The notes beneath the pieces are model-generated. The model had not been told where the DNA came from and made no database searches. It saw only the letters and a program-made list of their open reading frames with translations. A DNA stretch of 60,537 nt from a bacterium (lineage in GTDB: Bacteria > Verrucomicrobiota > Verrucomicrobiia > Limisphaerales > JAJXZI01), in the NCBI GenBank assembly GCA_021780115.1, contig JAJXZI010000022.1, positions 1-60,537 of the forward strand, read 5' to 3'. Both the position numbers and the translations under genes were made by a program. Below are positions 15,141 to 24,044 of the stretch, piece by piece (position 1 is the stretch's first letter; every line of letters starts with the position of its first letter).

Positions 15141-16916
15141 ATGAAAATCAAATTCGCACCCAGACTCATCACCCTCAGCCTTCTCACTGCGGCCCTCTGC
15201 CTTCCGGCCTTGGCCCAAGACACCGTGTTGACCTATCAAGGCCAGGTGCTGGACAACGGCACCAACTTCAATGGCCCCGGCCAGTTCAAGTTCGCCCTCG
15301 TCACCAGCACCAGCAGCAGCACCTACGTGACTTACTGGAGCAACGACGGCACGAGCGTGGCGGGCAGCGAGCCTTCCGCCGCCGTGGGTGTGAGCGTCAG
15401 TAAGGGGCTCTTCACCGTGGTACTGGGCGACACCACGCTGGCCCACATGACGGCTCTCCCCCGTTCGGTATTCACCACCCAGCCCAACCTGCAGTTGCGG
15501 ATTTGGTTCAATGACGGGGTCAGCGGCTTTGCCGCCTTGAGTCCGCTGCAAAACCTGACGCCGGCCCCGTACGCCGTGATGGCCAACAGCGCGATCAATC
15601 TGCTGGGCGGCGACGTCTCTGCCGGCGATGTTTCTGCCGGCAGCGTCGAGGTCGCCGGCCCTTTGTATCTGCCCAGCATAGGCGTGTATCCGGTTGTCAT
15701 CTACTCCGGCGGCAGTCTTCTCATGGATGCCGATAACCAGCACAACTTCTTCACCGGTCCGTCCGCAGGCAATTTGACGCTTGGCGGGTCCCTCAACACT
15801 GGGATCGGAATAGATGCCCTCCAGTTCGACACCACCGGCACTGCTAACACGGCCCTCGGCGAGCAGGCGCTTCAGTACAACACGGGCGGCTCCTACAACA
15901 CGGCTATCGGTTTCCAGGCGCTGGTGAACAACACGAACGGCGGCTACAACACAGCCCTTGGCGCTTTGGCGCTTGGGTTCAACACGAACGGCAACAACAA
16001 CACGGCCATCGGTTACGGGGCGCTTGTCGAAAACAGGATTGGCAACGACAACACGGCCAGCGGCTATCAGACGCTCAACTTCAACACGACCGGCGACTAC
16101 AACACGGCCAACGGCTTCGAGGCGCTTTACAACAATACGAATGGCAACGAGAACGTCGCCAGCGGCTATCGGGCGCTTTACAACAACCTGGGCGGCTCTT
16201 ACAACACGGCCTATGGCGACAGCGCGCTCTTCTTCAATACCACCGGCAACTACAACATAGCCAACGGCTATCTGGCGCTCCTGCACTGCACGACCGGCTC
16301 CGGGAACACGGCCAACGGCGTTAATGCGCTCCTGAATTGCGCGAACGGGACCAACAATACTGCGCTGGGTTATTCGGCTGGCGCCGCACTGACCACGGGC
16401 AACAACAACATCGACATCGGCCACCCCGGCGTGGCGGGCGACAACAACACCATTCGGATCGGGGCGGGAGCCTCCAGCACGTTTATCTCCGGCATTGCAG
16501 GGGTCACGATCGGCAGTGGCGCGCCGGTTTATGTCAATTCTTCCGGCCAACTCGGCACCATCACCTCCTCGGAACGATTCAAGCAAGACATCCACAGCAT
16601 GGGTGCGGCGAGCGATTTGCTCCTGGCGCTCCGGCCGGTGACCTTCCGCTACAAACCGGAACTGGACCCCAACGGCACCCCGCAGTTCGGCCTCATTGCC
16701 GAGGAGGTGAGCCAGGTGGACCCCGACCTGGTCGTGCGCGACGACAAGAACCGGATCTACACCGTCCGCTACGAAGCGGTGAACGCGATGCTGCTGAATG
16801 AGTTTCTCAAGGAACACCGGACGGTCGAAGCGCAGAGCGCGGAAATTCAACAACTCCAACAACGGCTCGACAAGCTGGAGCAACTCATCTCCCAGCAGAC
16901 CGGAGGCCAGCCATGA
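15141..16916 (+). CDS. second secreted tail-fibre-like protein with peptidase S74 autochaperone
   Basis: Signal peptide ALA-QD; LTYQGQV N-domain; about 14 NTAxGxxAL repeats; SSERFKQDI...LRPVTFRYK...FGLIAEEV followed by a coiled coil. Confidence 0.88.
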   Translation: MKIKFAPRLITLSLLTAALCLPALAQDTVLTYQGQVLDNGTNFNGPGQFKFALVTSTSSSTYVTYWSNDGTSVAGSEPSAAVGVSVSKGLFTVVLGDTTLAHMTALPRSVFTTQPNLQLRIWFNDGVSGFAALSPLQNLTPAPYAVMANSAINLLGGDVSAGDVSAGSVEVAGPLYLPSIGVYPVVIYSGGSLLMDADNQHNFFTGPSAGNLTLGGSLNTGIGIDALQFDTTGTANTALGEQALQYNTGGSYNTAIGFQALVNNTNGGYNTALGALALGFNTNGNNNTAIGYGALVENRIGNDNTASGYQTLNFNTTGDYNTANGFEALYNNTNGNENVASGYRALYNNLGGSYNTAYGDSALFFNTTGNYNIANGYLALLHCTTGSGNTANGVNALLNCANGTNNTALGYSAGAALTTGNNNIDIGHPGVAGDNNTIRIGAGASSTFISGIAGVTIGSGAPVYVNSSGQLGTITSSERFKQDIHSMGAASDLLLALRPVTFRYKPELDPNGTPQFGLIAEEVSQVDPDLVVRDDKNRIYTVRYEAVNAMLLNEFLKEHRTVEAQSAEIQQLQQRLDKLEQLISQQTGGQP

Positions 16917-17494
16917 AGACACGAGCAGGGAAGCTGAAGGGTGGCGGATGGCCGGCGCGCAGCGTCTTGGAGTGCGGCAGTCCTCTGGCACTTATGACCG
17001 GTGTGAAACATTCCCAAACCCCACAAAGCGCCGGCGGGCCGGCGCAGTCCAAAAACTGGCGGCGGAACCTGATCTATTTCTGTTTTCTGTTTTTTAGTCT
17101 CCAGGCATCTGGTCGAAGCTACTCCATTAACTGGTATAAAATGGCCAGCGGCGGCGGCACGAGCAGCAACGGTCAGTATTCCGTCAGCGGCACCATCGGC
17201 CAGCCCGATGCCAGCGGGCCGATGGCTGGCGGCAGTTACTCGCTCACCAGCGGCTTCTGGGCATTGATCTCTGTCGTGCAAGCACCGGGACTGCCGAGTC
17301 TGACCATTACTCATTCGGGCAATAGCGTGGTGGTTTCCTGGCCCAACACCGGCGGCTACACGCTGCAGCAGAATTCCAATCTGGCCACGGGAAACTGGGC
17401 GACCAGCGGCTATTCCATCGCCACCGCCAACGGCACGAACAGCATCACCATCACCCCGCCGGCGGGAAATCTGTTCTTTCGCTTGAAGCAGTAG
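16913..17494 (+). CDS. small secreted GGFW-domain protein (fibre partner 2)
   Basis: ATGA overlap with the fibre gene; SYSINWYKMASGGGTS..YSVSGTIGQPDA..YSLTSGFW; ends LFFRLKQ. Confidence 0.82.
   Translation: MKTRAGKLKGGGWPARSVLECGSPLALMTGVKHSQTPQSAGGPAQSKNWRRNLIYFCFLFFSLQASGRSYSINWYKMASGGGTSSNGQYSVSGTIGQPDASGPMAGGSYSLTSGFWALISVVQAPGLPSLTITHSGNSVVVSWPNTGGYTLQQNSNLATGNWATSGYSIATANGTNSITITPPAGNLFFRLKQ
16967..17052. repeat. inverted REP-like pair within CDS
   Basis: TTGGAGTGCGGCAGTCCTCTGGCACTT and AAGCGCCGGCGGGCCGGCGCAGTCCAA match at 20/27 nt as an inverted repeat. Confidence 0.65.
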
Positions 17495-17499
17495 CGGCC

Positions 17500-17778
17500 T
17501 TGAAACTTAAAGCCATGTGGACAAAATCTTGGGAATGGGAATCGTTCGTCCGGTGTTCGCGCCGGCATCGTTTCAACGGCCAGGATGCGAACGGAGCGTG
17601 GACGTTGTTCATCGCGGACGTGTCGCCGGTGGGCATCGGCACGCTGGAGAACTGGAGTCTGACGATTGACGGTAACGGTCCCATCGGCGTGCCGGATGGC
17701 GGGGCCACGTTTGGCCTGTTGGGAATGGGCTTGGCCGGAATAGCCGCCTTTCGGCAAAGACTTGCCCTTTCCCGATGA
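17500..17778 (+). pseudogene. remnant of a proprotein-convertase P-domain protein with VPDSG-CTERM-like sorting signal
   Basis: FNGQDANGAWTLFIADVS..GTLENWSLTI, then VPDGGATFGLLGMGLAGIAAFRQR; most of the N-terminal part is missing. Confidence 0.7.
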
Positions 17779-17863
17779 GGCCACCCGGCGCGGCATGGGT
17801 TGCTTCTTGCAAGATTGGGCGTCCGGGGGGGCAAAACATCGCCGTTTTTGCTTCAACGTGCTG

Positions 17864-17869
17864 TATAAT
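17864..17869 (+). promoter_or_regulatory. perfect -10 hexamer upstream of the repeat array
   Basis: TATAAT in a GC-rich context; no clear -35. Confidence 0.4.
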
Positions 17870-17903
17870 AGCAGCTTGCGCCATCGTCCAGACCAGAGCT
17901 GGG

Positions 17904-18185
17904 AATGAATCGGTTCATCGGAAGAGATGATTTCCACCAGCGGGGAGGATGGTCCGGTTCATCCGAGGGGATGAATGGGTTCATCGGCCGGGATGGTTCA
18001 CTCCCTCGGCGCGCTGGTGCCTTTCATCGGGAGGGATGGTTCGTTCCATCGACGGGGATGAATCCGACCGGCGACGCGCCGGTTCCCATCAGCGGCGGGC
18101 TGGTCCCATTCATCGTCGCGGCTGGTTCCGACCGCCGGCGCGATGCAGGGAGTCTTCCCTCGGGATGAAGGGCACCACCGCCGGG
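17904..18185 (+). repeat. degenerate tandem array, 13 units of 21-22 bp with GATG-N8-CATC consensus core
   Basis: Unit starts at 17905, 17927, 17949, 17971, 17993, 18014, 18036, 18058, 18079, 18100, 18122, 18143, 18165. Confidence 0.85.
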
Positions 18186-18300
18186 CCGGCCGGTATGGGT
18201 GGTCGCTAATGATTGATGTGTCACAGCCTTATCCCATTTTCATTCGCGCCGCATTTTTCTACTTGCGCGCCCACCAGGCCGGGCGTAAACCACCCGCGCC

Positions 18301-18777
18301 ATGAGCACAATCCAAAACGACATTGACAAAACCTTCACGGAACAGGAGTTGGCCGACTTCGACGCGGCCCTGGCCAAATTGGAGGCGGTGACGCAAGACC
18401 TGCCGGTGTTGACGGGCGCCGACAAGGCGGCGCACGTGCGTCCCCCGGACGGGGCGGGCGACTGGGTGCAGGGCATGCTCACGCGCGCCCAGCAGAACCT
18501 GAACAAGCTTTCCCGCGACTTCGATCCCGCCCTGGTGCAGCGCGACCTGGATTTGATCGGCGCGATTGATCCGCGTCTGCTGCGGTTGCAGCGCGTGGTG
18601 GACCGGCTGGCCGGCGCGCGGTTTCTGGCCGGGAGCGACTCGTTCGCCGTGATGCTCGGCGTGCGCCGCCAGCTTAAGGACAGCGGCGTGGCGGGCGTGG
18701 ACGACAACTTGAGCGAGGGATTGCAGCGTTTCTTCTCGCGCGCGAGCCACGCGCAACCGGCGCCGACGCCGAAATAA
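18301..18777 (+). CDS. alpha-helical hypothetical protein
   Basis: 158 aa, host-like codon use, own promoter TTGCGC-N17-TAAACC; resembles (from memory) a widespread uncharacterised family with the pattern QN.I....L.....AL..LE...D.....RDL...LAGSD. Confidence 0.8.
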   Translation: MSTIQNDIDKTFTEQELADFDAALAKLEAVTQDLPVLTGADKAAHVRPPDGAGDWVQGMLTRAQQNLNKLSRDFDPALVQRDLDLIGAIDPRLLRLQRVVDRLAGARFLAGSDSFAVMLGVRRQLKDSGVAGVDDNLSEGLQRFFSRASHAQPAPTPK

Positions 18778-18854
18778 TCCGCCTGGTTTTCGCGGCTCCT
18801 TCTACGGGGACTTCAGACACGGCTTCAGGTCCGCTTGAAACCAAGGCGCGGCTT

Positions 18855-19142
18855 TCACGGCCCGTGCGCCTTGGCATACTCGCACAGCGCCCGCAGGTTC
18901 GCCTCCGGCGTGTCGCGCGGGACTTCGCAGCCGGCGCCGACGATGTAACGCGAGCCGGCGTCACCGTGGCATTGGGCGACGGCGGCAGCCACCTGCTCCG
19001 GCGTGCCGTTGCGGAGGACGGTGACGGGATTGAGGTTGCCGAGGAGCACCTGGTTCGGCCCCATGGCGGCGCGGCCTTCGGCCATCGGGGCGAGCGAGTC
19101 GAGGTCCACAATTTCGCAGCCGAGCCGGCCCATGCCGGCTAA
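18855..19142 (-). pseudogene. 3' fragment of a uroporphyrinogen decarboxylase (URO-D)/MtaA-CmuA family gene
   Basis: VLLGNLNPVTVLRNGTPEQV...YIVGAGCEVPRDTPEANLRAL is the family C-terminus; the N-terminal three quarters are absent. Confidence 0.8.
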
Positions 19143-19379
19143 GTGCTGTAAAGGGGTCAGTTCTTGATGTTGATAACTTTTTTGCCGATCCCCGTTTGCC
19201 GGCCTCGGGTGTGTGTCTGAGTTTTCATGGTCCTTCCTTCGTGACTGTGGCCAGCCGGCGCCTTCCGCTGCCCGCCGCTAAGCGAAGGTGCGCACCGGCG
19301 TGCTGGCCGGGCGCCGGGCTTTTGTGCTTTGCAGGCCAGCGCGAATCCCCTAGATAATCCGGCTCCGTTTTGTGTGGTT

Positions 19380-20939
19380 ATGAAACCCGAAGTCGAGATC
19401 TACGACACGACCCTGCGCGATGGCAGCCAGGGCGAAGGCATCAATTTCTCGGTGGCGGACAAGCTCCGCATCGCCGAGCGGTTGGATGACTTCGGGGTCC
19501 ATTACATCGAGGGCGGCTGGCCGGGGTCCAATCCGAAGGACATCGAGCTTTTCGCCCAGGCGCAGCGCAAAAAATACCGGCACGCCCGGCTGGCGGCGTT
19601 CGGCTCAACACGGCGCAAGGACGTGGCGGTGGAGGCCGACGAGCAGGTGCGGCTGCTCCTGGAAGCGGGCACGCCGGTCGTCACGATCTTCGGCAAGACC
19701 TGGCTATTACACGTCAAGGAGGTGCTCCGCACCACGCCGGACGAAAACCTGGCGATGATCGCGGACACGGTGCGCTATCTGAAAGATCACGGGAAATTCG
19801 TGGTGTACGACGCCGAGCACGGTTTCGACGGGTTCAAAGATGATCCGGAGTACGCCCTCGCCACCTGGGGGGCGGCGGAAAAGGCGGGGGCGGACGTGGT
19901 GGTGCTGTGTGACACGAACGGCGGTTCGCTGCCGAAGGAAATCGCGGCCATCACGGCGAAGGCCCGCGGTAGCCTGACGGCGCGCCTTGGCATCCACACG
20001 CACGACGACATCGGCCTGGGCGTGGCGAACGCGCTGACGGCGCTGGAGGTGGGCGCCACGCACGTCCAGGGCACCATTAACGGCTACGGCGAGCGCACCG
20101 GCAACTGCAACCTGACGAGCGTCATCCCGAACCTCACGTTCAAGATGAAGAAACGCTGCGTGCCGGAGGCCGCGCTGGCGCAATTGCGCGAACTGTCGCA
20201 GTTCGTGGATGAGATGGCCAACTTCCGCCACAACCCGCGCCAGCCGTGGGTCGGCGCCACCGCCTTCGCCCACAAAGGCGGCATGCACGTCAACGCCGTG
20301 CAGAAGTTGGCGCGCAGCTTCGAGCACATCGACCCGGCGCTGGTGGGCAACCAGCGGCGGATTCTGGTCAGCGACCTAGCGGGCCGGAGCAACATCGTGA
20401 TGAAGGCGCAGGAGCTGGGCCTGCGGCTCACCAACGACACGCCGGAACTGAAGGCGATTCTCGCGCGGATCAAGGAACTGGAGCACGCGGGCTTCGAGTT
20501 CGAGGCGGCGGAGGCCTCGCTGGCGTTGCTCATCCGCCGCATCCTCCGGCGCCAGGAACTGCCGTTCACCGTGGACGCTTACCACGTCTCCATGCGCCGG
20601 AACGGCGCGAACTCGATTTGCGAGGCCACCGTCAAGGTGCGGGTCCGCGACCAAGCGGCCCACACGGTCGCGGAAGGCGACGGCCCGGTGAACGCGCTGG
20701 ACAAAGCCCTGCGCGCCGCGCTGGTGGCGTTTTATCCGCAACTCCAGAAGGTCGTGCTCACGGATTACAAGGTGCGGATCTTGGAGTCCTCCACCGGCAC
20801 CGGGGCGCGGACGCGGGTGCTCATCGAATCCAGCGATGGCAAGGAGGAGTGGGGCACCGTCGGCGTGGACGACAACATCGTCGAGGCCAGCCTCCAGGCG
20901 CTGGTGGACTCGATGGAGTATGCGTTGTTGAAGAAATGA
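19380..20939 (+). CDS. cimA: citramalate synthase
   Basis: YDTTLRDGSQGEG, IEGGWPGSNPKD, DAEHGFDG, GYGERTGN, AFAHKGGMH, LeuA-type regulatory domain. Confidence 0.93.
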   Translation: MKPEVEIYDTTLRDGSQGEGINFSVADKLRIAERLDDFGVHYIEGGWPGSNPKDIELFAQAQRKKYRHARLAAFGSTRRKDVAVEADEQVRLLLEAGTPVVTIFGKTWLLHVKEVLRTTPDENLAMIADTVRYLKDHGKFVVYDAEHGFDGFKDDPEYALATWGAAEKAGADVVVLCDTNGGSLPKEIAAITAKARGSLTARLGIHTHDDIGLGVANALTALEVGATHVQGTINGYGERTGNCNLTSVIPNLTFKMKKRCVPEAALAQLRELSQFVDEMANFRHNPRQPWVGATAFAHKGGMHVNAVQKLARSFEHIDPALVGNQRRILVSDLAGRSNIVMKAQELGLRLTNDTPELKAILARIKELEHAGFEFEAAEASLALLIRRILRRQELPFTVDAYHVSMRRNGANSICEATVKVRVRDQAAHTVAEGDGPVNALDKALRAALVAFYPQLQKVVLTDYKVRILESSTGTGARTRVLIESSDGKEEWGTVGVDDNIVEASLQALVDSMEYALLKK

Positions 20940-20945
20940 TTTTTC

Positions 20946-21021
20946 AACGCAAAGGCGCAAAGAGGCAAAGTCCCCAAGAATAGAAAGACTTTGCGTCTCC
21001 GCGTTTTGCCGTCATTGCGTT
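20946..21021. repeat. inverted pair of 8-mer tandem arrays (intergenic hairpin)
   Basis: AA-CGCAAAGG-CGCAAAGA-GGCAAAG ... CTTTGCGT-CTCCGCGT-TTTGCCGT-CATTGCGTT. Confidence 0.65.
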
Positions 21022-21029
21022 CAATTTCC

Positions 21030-24000
21030 ATGAGCGAAATTCCCAAAGCCTACGAACCGCAAGCGGTCGAAGAGAAGTGGTACCAGTTTTGGCTCGACCA
21101 GAAGTGCTTCGTGGCCAATCCCGCTTCGCCCAAACCAGCGTATTCCATCGTCATCCCGCCGCCCAACGTCACCGGCATGCTCCACATGGGGCACGTCCTG
21201 AACAACACCATCCAGGACATCCTCGCCCGCAAGGCGCGCATGGACGGCAAGGAAGTCCTCTGGCTGCCGGGCACGGACCACGCCGGCATCGCCACGCAGG
21301 CGGTCGTCGAGAAGGCCCTTCGCAAACAGGGCGTGATGAAGCACCGTGACGACCTCGGCCGCGAGAAGTTCCTCGAACACGTCTGGGCTTGGAAGGAAAA
21401 GCACGGCGGCATCATCATCCAGCAGCTCAAGAAACTCGGCTGCTCGTGCGATTGGACCCGCGAGCGGTTCACGATGGACCCGGATTACTCGCGCTGCGTC
21501 CAGAAGGTCTTCGTCGAGCTCTACAAGAAGGGCCTCATCTACCGCGGCAAACGCATGGTCAACTGGGACCCCGCCGCCCGCACCGCGCTCTCTGATGAGG
21601 AAGTCGAGATGACGGAAACGAAGGGACACCTGTGGCACCTCAAGTACCCAATGCTGGATGATGCCGGTCAACCGATCCCGGACCAGTTCGTCATCGTGGC
21701 CACGACGCGCCCCGAAACGATGCTCGGCGACGAAGCGGTGGCGGTGAATCCCAAGGACGAGCGCTACACCAAGCTCGTCGGAACGAAGGTTCTGCTGCCG
21801 CTCCAGAACAAGCACATCCCGATCATCGCGGATGATTTCGTGGATCCGAAGTTCGGCACGGGCTGCGTGAAGGTGACGCCCGCGCACGATCCGAACGACT
21901 ACGCGATGGCCACGCGCCACAGCCTGCCGCTCACGGTCGTCATCGGCCCGGACGGCAAGATGACTGGCGAAGCGGGCGGCGGTTTCGCGGGGCTGGACCG
22001 CGCCGAAGCGCGCAAGGTGGTCGTGGAGCACTTGGAGAAGCTGGGCCTACTGCTCAAGTTCGAGGACTACGTCCACAACGTTGGCCACAGCCAGCGCAGC
22101 CACGTGCCCATCGAACCGTATCTGAGCGAGCAGTGGTTCCTGAAGTATCCGAGCGTGGAGGCGGCGACGGCGTGTGTGGTGGGGAGCGCACGCGGCCCGC
22201 GTGCCGATTCCGGCGGCCCGCCGGAATCATCGTCAGACCAATCGAGTTTGGAGGAACGAGCGTCGGGCGGGCCGCCCGCCGCGGCAGCCGGGCCGGCTGC
22301 GCTCCCCCCGATGCGTTTTCATCCGGAGCGCTGGAGCAAGACCTACGCGCACTGGATGACCAACCTCCGCGACTGGTGCATCAGCCGCCAGCTTTGGTGG
22401 GGGCATCGGATTCCGGTGTGGCATAAGCGTCTCACAGTTCCCAATCGACCGGAAAATCACAGCAAGGTTTGGTGGTTCAGCGAAACCGAACGCGCACTTG
22501 ATGAATACAGGAACAACGTTGTTGTTCGTATTGTTCACACAGCGTCTGGGCGAATTGTTGGCCCGTTTAAGACTAAAGAAGGAATGGACAACAATCTTGA
22601 GTTAAACGAGGAAATGGACGCCGGAAAACCTGAGCACGAATTTGATGTGTTCGTTTGCACGGTTGATGAACCAGCAGTCAAATACTTGGTTGAGGAAGAA
22701 GGCTTCACCCAAGACCCCGATGTCCTCGACACCTGGTTCAGTTCGTGGCTCTGGCCCTTTGCCACGATGGGCTGGCCGGAGCAGACGCCCACGCTCAGGA
22801 AGTTCTATCCCACCACCGACCTTGTCACCGGGCCGGACATCATTTTCTTCTGGGTCGCGCGGATGATCATGGCGGGCTACGAGTTCATGGGCGACCTGCC
22901 GTTCCGCAACGTCTATTTCACCGGCATCATCCGCGACAAGCTGGGCCGCAAGATGAGCAAGAGCCTGGGCAATTCGCCCGACCCGCTCGAACTCATCGCC
23001 AAGTACGGCGCCGACGCCCTCCGCTTCGGCACCATGCGCAGCGCGCCGCTCGGCCAGGACGTGCTCTTCGACGAGAAGGACGTCGAGTTGGGCCGCAACT
23101 TCTGTAACAAGCTCTGGAACGCCTGCCGGTTCCGGCAAATGCAGGGCGGCGAGGTGCAAGGCGAGATCAACTCCGCCCTGCTCACCAGCGACGACAAGTG
23201 GATGCTCCTCCGCCTCGACGCCGCCATCCGCGAGATCTCCACCGCCTTCGCCGAATACCGCTTCAACGAGGCCACGCAGGCGCTTTACCGCGTTTTCTGG
23301 AGTGAGTTTTGCGACTGGTATCTCGAGGCCGCGAAGGCCCCGATGCAGTCCGGCACGTCGGCGCAAAAGGCCAATACCCTGGCCGTCCTCGACTTCGTCC
23401 TCTCGCACATGCTGCGGCTGTTCCATCCGTTCCTGCCGCACATCACCGAAGAGCTTTGGCACGGCATGGGATACAGCGCCGACATGCCGGAAAAGCAGGG
23501 CGGCAAGACGATCATGTTCGCCCCCTGGCCCAAGCCACTCGACCAGGATTTCCGCGACCACTACGGCCTGAACGACCGCGCTCTCGCCATCGCCGAGGCG
23601 AAGCAGGAGTTGGTGATTCAAGGCCGCAACCTGCGCCGCGAGAAGAACATCCCAGCCAACAAACGGGTGAAGTTCATCCTCAAGCCCGCCGATCCGGTCG
23701 CGCCGCACGACCAAGCGGTGCTCCAGCTTCTGCTAAACGCCGACGTGTTCGACGTGGACCCTTACTTTCAAGGCCCGAAGGGCATGCCATCGGTCCACGT
23801 GAAGCTCGGCGAACTTTTCCTGCCCCTGGAGGGCTTGATTGATGCGGCGGCTGAGCGGGCGCGGTTGACGAAGGAACTGGAAAAGGCGAACGCCGAAACC
23901 GCCAAGGTGGAACAGAAGCTGAACAATCCGTCCTTCGTCCAGAAAGTGCCGCCCGCCGTTTTGGAGGAGCACCAGAAGCGCCGGGCCGAGTGGCAGGCGA

Positions 24001-24044
24001 AACGGGAACTGATTCAAAAGGCGCTGGCGGCGTTAGGCAGTTGA
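21030..24044 (+). CDS. valS: valine--tRNA ligase
   Basis: PPPNVTGMLHMGH, TTRPETMLGD, WCISRQLWWGHRIP, DVLDTWFSS, KMSKS, C-terminal coiled coil. Confidence 0.98.
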   Translation: MSEIPKAYEPQAVEEKWYQFWLDQKCFVANPASPKPAYSIVIPPPNVTGMLHMGHVLNNTIQDILARKARMDGKEVLWLPGTDHAGIATQAVVEKALRKQGVMKHRDDLGREKFLEHVWAWKEKHGGIIIQQLKKLGCSCDWTRERFTMDPDYSRCVQKVFVELYKKGLIYRGKRMVNWDPAARTALSDEEVEMTETKGHLWHLKYPMLDDAGQPIPDQFVIVATTRPETMLGDEAVAVNPKDERYTKLVGTKVLLPLQNKHIPIIADDFVDPKFGTGCVKVTPAHDPNDYAMATRHSLPLTVVIGPDGKMTGEAGGGFAGLDRAEARKVVVEHLEKLGLLLKFEDYVHNVGHSQRSHVPIEPYLSEQWFLKYPSVEAATACVVGSARGPRADSGGPPESSSDQSSLEERASGGPPAAAAGPAALPPMRFHPERWSKTYAHWMTNLRDWCISRQLWWGHRIPVWHKRLTVPNRPENHSKVWWFSETERALDEYRNNVVVRIVHTASGRIVGPFKTKEGMDNNLELNEEMDAGKPEHEFDVFVCTVDEPAVKYLVEEEGFTQDPDVLDTWFSSWLWPFATMGWPEQTPTLRKFYPTTDLVTGPDIIFFWVARMIMAGYEFMGDLPFRNVYFTGIIRDKLGRKMSKSLGNSPDPLELIAKYGADALRFGTMRSAPLGQDVLFDEKDVELGRNFCNKLWNACRFRQMQGGEVQGEINSALLTSDDKWMLLRLDAAIREISTAFAEYRFNEATQALYRVFWSEFCDWYLEAAKAPMQSGTSAQKANTLAVLDFVLSHMLRLFHPFLPHITEELWHGMGYSADMPEKQGGKTIMFAPWPKPLDQDFRDHYGLNDRALAIAEAKQELVIQGRNLRREKNIPANKRVKFILKPADPVAPHDQAVLQLLLNADVFDVDPYFQGPKGMPSVHVKLGELFLPLEGLIDAAAERARLTKELEKANAETAKVEQKLNNPSFVQKVPPAVLEEHQKRRAEWQAKRELIQKALAALGS
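22181..22307. repeat. palindromic four-hairpin element inserted in frame in valS
   Basis: Terminal IR GGGGAGCGCA/TGCGCTCCCC; two hairpins with GCC loops, then two with GGC loops. Confidence 0.85.

Follow-up and report, generated by a model that had tools for sequence, protein, structure and literature searches.

A contig of 60,537 nucleotides from a member of the Limisphaerales (Verrucomicrobiota; assembly GCA_021780115.1, contig JAJXZI010000022.1), the whole of which we refer to as the window, contains an intergenic array of short imperfect repeats that is followed after 115 nt by an open reading frame (ORF) coding for a 158-residue protein. An initial annotation, made from the sequence alone, proposed that the two constitute a module in which the array is either a protein-binding site laid out on one face of the DNA or a repeat RNA bound by the protein. 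The array consists of 13 contiguous units occupying 281 nt (Table 1), and these can be cut exactly into the lengths originally given, which along the array are 22, 22, 22, 22, 21, 22, 22, 21, 21, 22, 21, 22 and 21 nt; the mean is 21.6 nt, in agreement with the period of about two helical turns that had been claimed. The units are degenerate, with a mean pairwise identity of 57% (range 24–82%), and conservation is a matter of particular columns: G3, C12 and C15 are present in 13 of 13 units, T2 and G21 in 12 of 13, G16 in 11 of 13, and G22 in 8 of 8. Autocorrelation of positions 17890–18200 reaches 0.474 at lag 22, 0.422 at lag 43 and 0.415 at lag 65, all of them above the ceiling of 0.389 set at any lag by 500 mononucleotide shuffles, every one of which is exceeded. 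Tandem Repeats Finder reports two copies only (18084–18126, period 21), since units this degenerate escape standard repeat finders. On a statistic confined to lags not divisible by 3, no other 22/43/65 array in the genome (5.15 Mb, 344 contigs) is as strong, and an nhmmer search of the same genome with a profile of the units finds no second cluster of them.

The core of the repeat had been described as a GATG-N8-CATC dyad. This holds for the consensus and was overstated as a feature of every unit, since the exact dyad occurs in only three of the 13 (at 17948, 17970 and 18035); across the whole window there are five matches where 0.84 are expected. A coding interpretation of the array was considered and rejected, as the initial annotation had done, because the 22-nt units shift the reading frame, unit lengths are mixed, and the overlapping ORFs score below 0.15 on a codon model trained on the organism's own genome. 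An Rfam search of 17000–19500 with E-values up to 10 returned matches at chance level only, the best having an E-value of 0.77 and all lying far below gathering scores. The array is thus non-coding and matches no Rfam family. The region 17880–18300 folds better than shuffled sequences (z = −3.1), and the two strands of the array do so about equally well (z = −2.96 and −2.63).

The 158-residue ORF is well supported as a gene by its codon-model score of 0.53, which is like those of neighbouring real genes. An AlphaFold2 model built from 34 sequences is confident and all-helical (predicted local distance difference test score, pLDDT, 89.8), with helices predicted at residues 14–30, 39–43, 52–65, 76–127 and 139–149, so that position, codon usage and predicted structure all agree with the small helical gene first described. 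The protein has no family match in Pfam, NCBIfam, PHROGs or PADLOC, a sequence-profile search of the PDB gave nothing significant, Foldseek found no match in the PDB with E below 1, and the ESM Atlas gave none. Two copies are modelled as an extensive, intertwined and symmetric homodimer with a score of 0.83 in three runs (0.84, 0.83 and 0.83), which share at least 96% of their contacts and have partner pLDDT values of at least 86, and the best of three controls scores 0.00. The mark was reached by 20 of 30 proteins whose solved structures are pairs of one chain and by one of 23 solved as single chains, counts that apply only roughly here because a custom alignment was used.

The family comprises 35 proteins at 90% clustering, and those with a named source are labelled Verrucomicrobia or Verrucomicrobiae; at 50% identity there are 51 clusters, extending to relatives that are 25–35% identical, one of them labelled Chitinophagaceae. 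Its distribution is patchy, with members in one of 61 relatives and in seven of 401 genomes sampled across the phylum. A search of viral contigs gave no homologue, and no longer, fused forms of the family (462–2000 aa) were found, which is weak evidence. There is no paralogue in the organism's own genome, just a fragment of the 3′ end: contig C306 has at its end a second copy of the last ∼85 nt of the gene and the downstream flank (window 18692–18830; locus L002, C306:1–170), joined there to unrelated sequence. A loose end at 18692, seen in four of four DNA runs, represents the same branch.

The perfect TATAAT noted upstream of the array is present at the distance given, but its inclusion in the module was not supported. 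The hexamer occurs twice in the window, as it does at least twice in 24 of 100 shuffles, and it has no −35 partner and is not called by a promoter scan; in the closest relative, locus L020, whose protein is 96% identical, the aligned position reads TTCCAG. Closer to the gene there is a weak promoter-like layout, which is found at the same place in L020 (TTGCGC-17-TAAAAG), L021 (TTGCAT-18-TAGAAC) and L004 (TTGTCA-15-TATAGA) and ends 9–14 nt before the ATG in the four loci; if it is used, the array would sit upstream of a near-leaderless promoter. No terminator-like site lies within 18186–18300, the sole one called within 17400–19200 being at 17783–17800, and scans for promoters and terminators around the arrays of the window, L007, L011 and L012 gave nothing consistent. 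In four related loci (L005, L007, L022 and L024) a conserved ATTTGGGGCTG element, followed by a hairpin, is located 30–70 nt before the start codon; the letters of the stem vary (GCCGG/CCGGC versus GCTGGC/GCCAGC) and the loop is GGGAAGC-like.

Recurrence and evolution of the array beside the gene

The initial annotation had suggested looking for periodicity beside homologues of the gene. We fetched 16 loci from species genomes and nine from metagenomes, of which 19 contain most of the gene, and determined for the 1 kb upstream in each the best period among 10–36 nt, counting support at the lag itself and at its double and triple. The result is positive: in 17 of the 19 loci the best period is 21.0–22.0 nt, with scores of 0.14–0.67 (0.30 for the window), and after merging of duplicates and near-duplicates (L005/L023, L024/L025 and L010/L011) the count is 15 of 17 non-redundant loci, the window included. 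As a scale for these scores, 398 of 56,883 non-coding windows of the organism's own genome reach 0.14 at any period. Downstream of the gene other periods are best in 18 of 19 loci and in the window, and the peak at 21.0 nt in L020 has a score of just 0.088. Two loci depart from the upstream pattern: L004 carries a mobile-element-like insertion and lacks an array, and in L015 the match begins at residue 49. The period is 21.5 nt in nine loci, 22.0 nt in seven loci and the window, and 21.0 nt in two, and because 21.5 and 22.0 are not codon multiples the arrays of this family are not heptad-coding.

The proteins at the array-bearing loci are 49–96% identical to that of the window and come from different genera, and the neighbouring genes vary from locus to locus. 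Because the neighbours differ while array and gene persist together, the two are taken to be inherited as a unit. On these comparisons the array and the 158-residue gene are a conserved two-part module that recurs in distant Verrucomicrobia, much as had been supposed from the single example. The length of the upstream sequence is often limited, with the contig ending within about 1.1 kb of the gene in nine of the 19 loci (L004, L006, L007, L008, L010, L011, L020, L022 and L026); several of these ends fall inside the array, which suggests that assemblies break there. The array of L012 consists of ten nearly identical 21-nt units, and that of the window is identical in contigs from four DNA runs of one study, which are possibly its source samples.

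Comparison with L020 shows which parts of the locus are changing. Similarity begins just upstream of the array, the sequence before it being unalignable; from there the array is 83% identical (17% divergence), the spacer diverges by 33%, and the gene (18301–18777 versus L020:725–1201) is 95.6% identical at the nucleotide level, with 9.6% divergence at 83 four-fold sites. Judged by these figures the gene is unusually conserved. The 44 substitutions in the array cluster at unit positions 7–9 and 17–20, and positions 3, 12, 13 and 15 never change, a pattern suggesting that the dyad arms are kept by selection while the centre and the linker are free to diverge; in three units the pair at dyad position 4/11 is G-C in one locus and G-T in the other. 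The L020 array also lacks one exact 22-nt unit, and an insertion of about 190 nt whose ends are inverted separates units 11 and 12. Insertions of this size and kind, resembling miniature inverted-repeat transposable elements, are seen in or next to arrays in three lineages, namely at L020:∼360–550, at L004:∼270–470, and between array and gene in L024/L025.

Between orthologues the unit sequences often have little in common. There is no tetramer shared by all 28 arrays examined, the best being AGGG/CCCT (median enrichment 3.4-fold, and more than 1.5-fold in 64% of the arrays). A degenerate 12-nt motif, GGTYNGRAGGGG, was found in 11 of 81 loci scanned, all 11 belonging to the 158-residue family and each match lying inside the upstream array; it is on the gene strand in eight loci and on the opposite strand in three (L010, L011 and L014). 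The array of the window shares a TTCATCGG..GGG lead with the start of the L007, L022 and L025 arrays.

Possible modes of action

Of the two mechanisms proposed at the outset, the sequence evidence leans towards a same-face DNA array. We put at roughly 0.4 the probability that the array acts as double-stranded DNA, that is, as a same-face, dyad-containing putative binding array in cis to the gene, and it is perhaps the dimer of the gene's own product that binds it. The occurrence of GGTYNGRAGGGG in either orientation favours duplex DNA, because a binding site survives inversion and an RNA sequence does not, and so does the retention of a period of two helical turns while the sequence changes. 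The lack of strand bias points in the same direction: counts of GGA over 23 arrays are 164 for the gene strand and 176 for the other (10 versus 10 in the window), some arrays are G-rich and others C-rich with no consistent preference, and in the window both strands fold about equally well. The linkage of array to gene across loci, the constancy of the dyad arms beside variable centres and spacers, and the weak promoter-like layout between array and ATG are further points in its favour. The predicted symmetric homodimer fits dyad sites.

In such a mechanism about 13 partly dyad-symmetric sites would follow one another at intervals of two helical turns, and the proteins bound to them would be aligned on one face of the helix, upstream of the weak promoter that belongs to the gene. 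The simplest candidate for the binder is the symmetric homodimer encoded by the gene itself, and the outcome would be an autoregulated or self-anchoring nucleoprotein array similar to those of iterons, operators or centromeres. What is observed is the array with its period, the pattern of its conservation and its association with the gene family; from these we infer in turn that the array may act as DNA, that a protein may bind it, and that the gene product may be that protein.

Several observations weigh against this mechanism. The protein is acidic, as are most of its full-length relatives (pI 4.8–6.6), and no DNA-binding fold or family was recognised in Pfam, NCBIfam, PDB sequences or by Foldseek against the PDB at E below 1. 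The promoter-like layout has seven of 12 consensus matches, is below the threshold of the scan and was not called. Strong local hairpins are possible in many arrays, those of L005–L008 and L022 above all, and would also suit an RNA. Unit sequences are strongly diverged between orthologues that are 50–70% identical, with L009, L013 and L026 carrying other units, and the window's own array lacks GGTYNGRAGGGG (there is no match in L001/L043). Nor is the association universal: L004 encodes a full-length homologue without an array, and the distant relatives L042, L044, L046 and L049 also have none. Two further distant members depart from the usual arrangement, L045 having a 21-nt array far upstream, at about 520–700 nt, and L047 an array of the palindrome TTCCAAYGATTGGAA with a 31-nt period about 400 nt upstream.

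The array may alternatively be transcribed and act as RNA, either as a long structured mRNA leader or as a separate hairpin repeat RNA bound by a protein, possibly the 158-residue dimer, and this we regard as a possible but rather doubtful account. The array does fold beyond shuffles (z of −3.1 for 17880–18300, and −2.96), related arrays form regular, GC-rich hairpins of 7–8 bp, and in L005–L008 and L022 the gene strand is more stable than its complement (in L007, −204 versus −180 kcal/mol); however, the z-scores of the two strands of the window are alike, the gap in stability elsewhere is expected of a G+T-rich strand anyway, and neither composition nor GGA shows a strand bias. The G-C/G-T switch at dyad position 4/11 in three units between the window and L020 speaks for this account, as does the GGGAAGC-loop hairpin with its changed stem before the start codon in L005, L007, L022 and L024, but about half of the units in the window have mismatched arms, and by hand count 25 of 52 variable arm pairs are Watson-Crick, which is near the expectation from column composition and therefore no covariation. 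The TATAAT 35 nt upstream in the window could provide transcription, yet it is not conserved, and there is no consistent promoter or terminator around the arrays of the window, L007, L011 and L012. Moreover, GGTYNGRAGGGG is inverted relative to the gene in three of 11 loci, and action as RNA leaves without reason a period fixed at 21–22 nt.

Other accounts are less probable still. Phased repeats produce DNA curvature, and the array could be structural DNA with no dedicated binder, in which small in-phase bends add up to curved or anisotropically flexible DNA that tunes the promoter directly or through a nucleoid protein. Conservation of the period while unit sequences turn over between orthologues, the lack of a tetramer common to all 28 arrays (AGGG/CCCT being the best) and the freedom of orientation would all be accommodated, whereas the invariance of the dyad-arm positions within the array and between species, and the retention of the 12-nt GGTYNGRAGGGG across genera in the family, argue for sequence-specific recognition, and we think a purely structural role unlikely. 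It is more improbable again that the array is a functionless by-product, a slippage-prone tandem repeat persisting beside the gene by descent: degenerate units that differ between lineages, the tolerance in L020 of both the loss of a whole unit and a mobile-element-like insertion inside the array, and the nine of 19 contigs that break off less than about 1.1 kb before the gene would be in keeping with this, but not the association in 15 of 17 non-redundant loci from genera whose proteins are 49–96% identical to the window's, the better conservation of the array than of flanking non-coding DNA with position-specific constraint, the phase kept over 13 units, or the identity of the array in contigs of the four DNA runs. 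A pair resembling a type III toxin-antitoxin (TA) system, in which the repeats would be an antitoxic RNA that is processed and bound by the downstream protein as a would-be toxin, has the right layout, with an array directly upstream of a small, stand-alone and patchy gene (in seven of 401 sampled genomes and one of 61 relatives), and the ten nearly identical units of L012 would suit it; 13 units of 21–22 nt that are 57% alike, the lack of a terminator-like site in 18186–18300, a protein without Pfam, PADLOC or PDB Foldseek matches, and a GGTYNGRAGGGG motif that faces away from the gene in three loci make it very unlikely. Least of all do we expect a CsrB-like RNA that titrates CsrA/RsmA through GGA motifs spaced along the repeats. 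GGATG is present at several unit junctions and the genome encodes a CsrA (PF02599, 79.7 bits, contig C307), but GGA has no strand preference in the window or over the 23 arrays and occurs less than once per unit, Rfam gives no match, and linkage to one gene family is unexpected for a global sponge.

Other 21-nt arrays and neighbouring features

The window's array is not the only one of its general kind in the genome, which contains at least 12 other non-coding arrays whose period is near 21 nt and whose units are unrelated in sequence, several of them 57–260 nt upstream of other small unannotated proteins. Some have a period of exactly 21.0 nt, and arrays of this type lie 31–548 nt upstream of members of three other small unannotated protein families: in seven of seven loci with a full N-terminus, from four genomes, for the MxDYIP-type family; in nine of nine loci from eight genomes for the C123-type family, with a shared TCCCGC-type motif in one orientation; and in two of two loci for the C250-type family. 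The three families co-occur in a few genomes (G000, G514 and G512), and their proteins end in Pro/Thr/Ala-rich tails. The exactly 21.0-nt arrays can be read as heptads in one frame (for example xPAGFxx or DSLEGLR), and they may be short repeat-protein genes and not non-coding arrays; counts of synonymous and non-synonymous changes favoured neither. Because of this possible heptad coding we do not count the other families as support for the array of the window. Homology of the 158-residue family to the C123-type family was rejected (hhalign probability 0.8%), and the AlphaFold model of the C123-type protein is poor (pLDDT 56.6). Of the further ∼21-nt arrays with other units that are not beside small ORFs, one fills the gap between ORFs resembling those for succinyl-CoA ligase beta and LepA, and just past the 21-nt array on contig C268 there is a near-perfect tandem repeat of ∼17–18 nt (C268:4643–4929).

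It is conceivable, if speculative, that the window contains one member of an undescribed class of self-contained modules in the Verrucomicrobiota, each made up of a phased array of ∼21 nt and, after it, the gene for a small helical protein whose tail is Pro/Thr/Ala-rich, in which at least four families without detectable sequence relationship, several per genome and each with its own array motif, would have proteins that polymerise on their own arrays as DNA or RNA. If true, this class would be a new cognate repeat-protein system and not a variant of iterons or of type III TA systems.

Table 1. Coordinates of the array, the gene, their flanking signals and other arrays with a period near 21 nt
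Feature	Position	Strand	Remarks
TATAAT hexamer	17864..17869	+	35 nt before array; probably not part of the module
13-unit array, 21/22 nt	17905..18185	.	consensus roughly (G)ATGGTTCnnTTCATCGGnnGGG; invariant G3, C12, C15
Array-to-start-codon spacer, 115 nt	18186..18300	+	evolves faster than array; 67% identity to L020
Weak promoter-like layout TTGCGC-17 nt-TAAACC	18263..18291	+	ends 9 nt before ATG; inferred by reading the sequence
158-aa ORF	18301..18777	+	acidic (pI 5.3), predicted all-helical, no known family; starts 115 nt after array
Own-genome array	C268:4335-4708		exactly 21.0 nt
Own-genome array	C13:4621-4972		exactly 21.0 nt
Own-genome array	C70:31769-31967		exactly 21.0 nt
Own-genome array	C100:5061-5368		exactly 21.0 nt
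Own-genome array	C250:9329-9702		exactly 21.0 nt
Own-genome array	C123:3939-4290		exactly 21.0 nt
Own-genome array	C293:11815-12100		exactly 21.0 nt
Arrays in related loci	L051, L054, L060, L061, L067-L073, L076, L081		exactly 21.0 nt
Further array	C9:13839-14256		~21 nt; not beside a small ORF
Further array	C317:12123-12496		~21 nt; not beside a small ORF
Further array	C305:2399-2838		~21 nt; not beside a small ORF
Further array	C70:9989-10450		~21 nt; not beside a small ORF
Further array	C62:2597-2882		~21 nt; not beside a small ORF

The surroundings of the module in the window include sequences that resemble broken genes. On the reverse strand at 18855–19133 lies a 92-residue ORF whose match to uroporphyrinogen decarboxylase (PF01208, E = 1e-16) is confined to the last 90 positions, so that it is probably what remains of a broken gene; in L020 a diverged copy of this remnant follows the gene and looks, by eye, markedly more diverged than the gene itself. 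Upstream on the forward strand are two adjacent ORFs (16913–17494 and 17500–17778), the second of which has the end of a proprotein-convertase P-domain and a VPDSG-CTERM sorting signal; with a codon-model score below 0.15, it may be part of a larger gene that has been broken.

Should the array prove to be the cognate platform for a dimer with a new fold, the module would represent an uncharacterised means of assembling long, phased complexes of protein with DNA or RNA on a bacterial chromosome, and this in a phylum, the Verrucomicrobia, for which molecular genetics hardly exists. The pairing of one small protein with one 281-bp array provides a direct experimental handle, and the related arrays before other small proteins point to a broader layer of regulation or organisation that has so far gone unannotated. 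Full-text literature searches gave no paper with such arrays in its title or abstract, which is weak evidence that they are unpublished, as most subscription journals are outside the range of these searches.

Comparison with known repeat systems

The array is not a set of clustered regularly interspaced short palindromic repeats (CRISPR), which is excluded because its units of 21–22 nt are contiguous and there are no spacers between them. CsrB/RsmZ-type RNAs have many short, imperfect units spaced at roughly 20 nt, with G-rich motifs and the potential to form hairpins, and in all these respects the array is similar; it differs in having no strand bias of GGA and no Rfam match, and in its tight linkage to one protein-coding family, and we reject this assignment. 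Repetitive extragenic palindromic (REP) sequences, bacterial interspersed mosaic elements (BIME) and BOX elements are likewise clusters of short imperfect palindromes in intergenic DNA, but they are dispersed, with many copies per genome, whereas the unit family of the window's array is found once in the organism's genome and is tied to one gene family.

What recalls type III TA systems (ToxIN, CptIN and TenpIN) is a promoter-proximal tandem array placed immediately before a small, stand-alone gene of patchy occurrence. In the families listed in Table 2 of one survey the antitoxin repeats are 31–62 nt long and present in 1.9–5.6 copies, and a palindromic terminator is described there as required between the repeats and the toxin (PMC3401426). 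Against these published values the array of the window has repeats of 21–22 nt, 13 copies as opposed to two to six, and degenerate units; no terminator is called, the protein is unrelated to ToxN, CptN and TenpN, and the family motif GGTYNGRAGGGG is on the gene strand in eight loci but on the opposite strand in three. Membership of the type III families as described in that source was therefore rejected on repeat length and copy number, terminator and toxin relationship alike, and these differences, with the missing spacers, bear out the initial view that the locus is recognisable neither as a type III TA system nor as a guide array.

The closest parallels may lie with iteron, centromere and operator arrays, from which there are also clear departures. 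A plasmid iteron system in the strict sense was rejected, since the array is on a 60-kb contig with housekeeping-like ORFs and no relative was found in viral contigs, the collections searched being other than plasmid ones; by eye the translation of 19329–20939 resembles an isopropylmalate/citramalate synthase and that of 20991–24044 a valyl-tRNA synthetase. The context is thus chromosomal, near housekeeping-like genes, and differs in this from iteron and centromere arrays, as do the 13 units, which exceed typical iteron sets, and the acidic protein; no Rep, ParA/ParM, ParB, ribbon-helix-helix or known centromere-binding fold was found in Pfam, NCBIfam, PHROGs or PDB sequences and folds. Arrays bound by small dimeric proteins include the 22-bp iterons of R6K and pPS10, the lambda ori iterons with the O dimer, ParR-parC and the 43-bp sopC repeats of F. 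The ParB of pCXC100 with its centromere repeats is reported as a further system of this kind (PMC3074162). With arrays of this kind the window shares tandem, partly dyad-symmetric sites at about two helical turns beside the gene for a small protein modelled as a dimer, and array sequences that diverge between relatives while the period is kept. The phasing itself corresponds to that of iterons and centromeres, with a mean unit of 21.6 nt in the window and a period of 21.0–22.0 nt in 17 of the 19 related loci.

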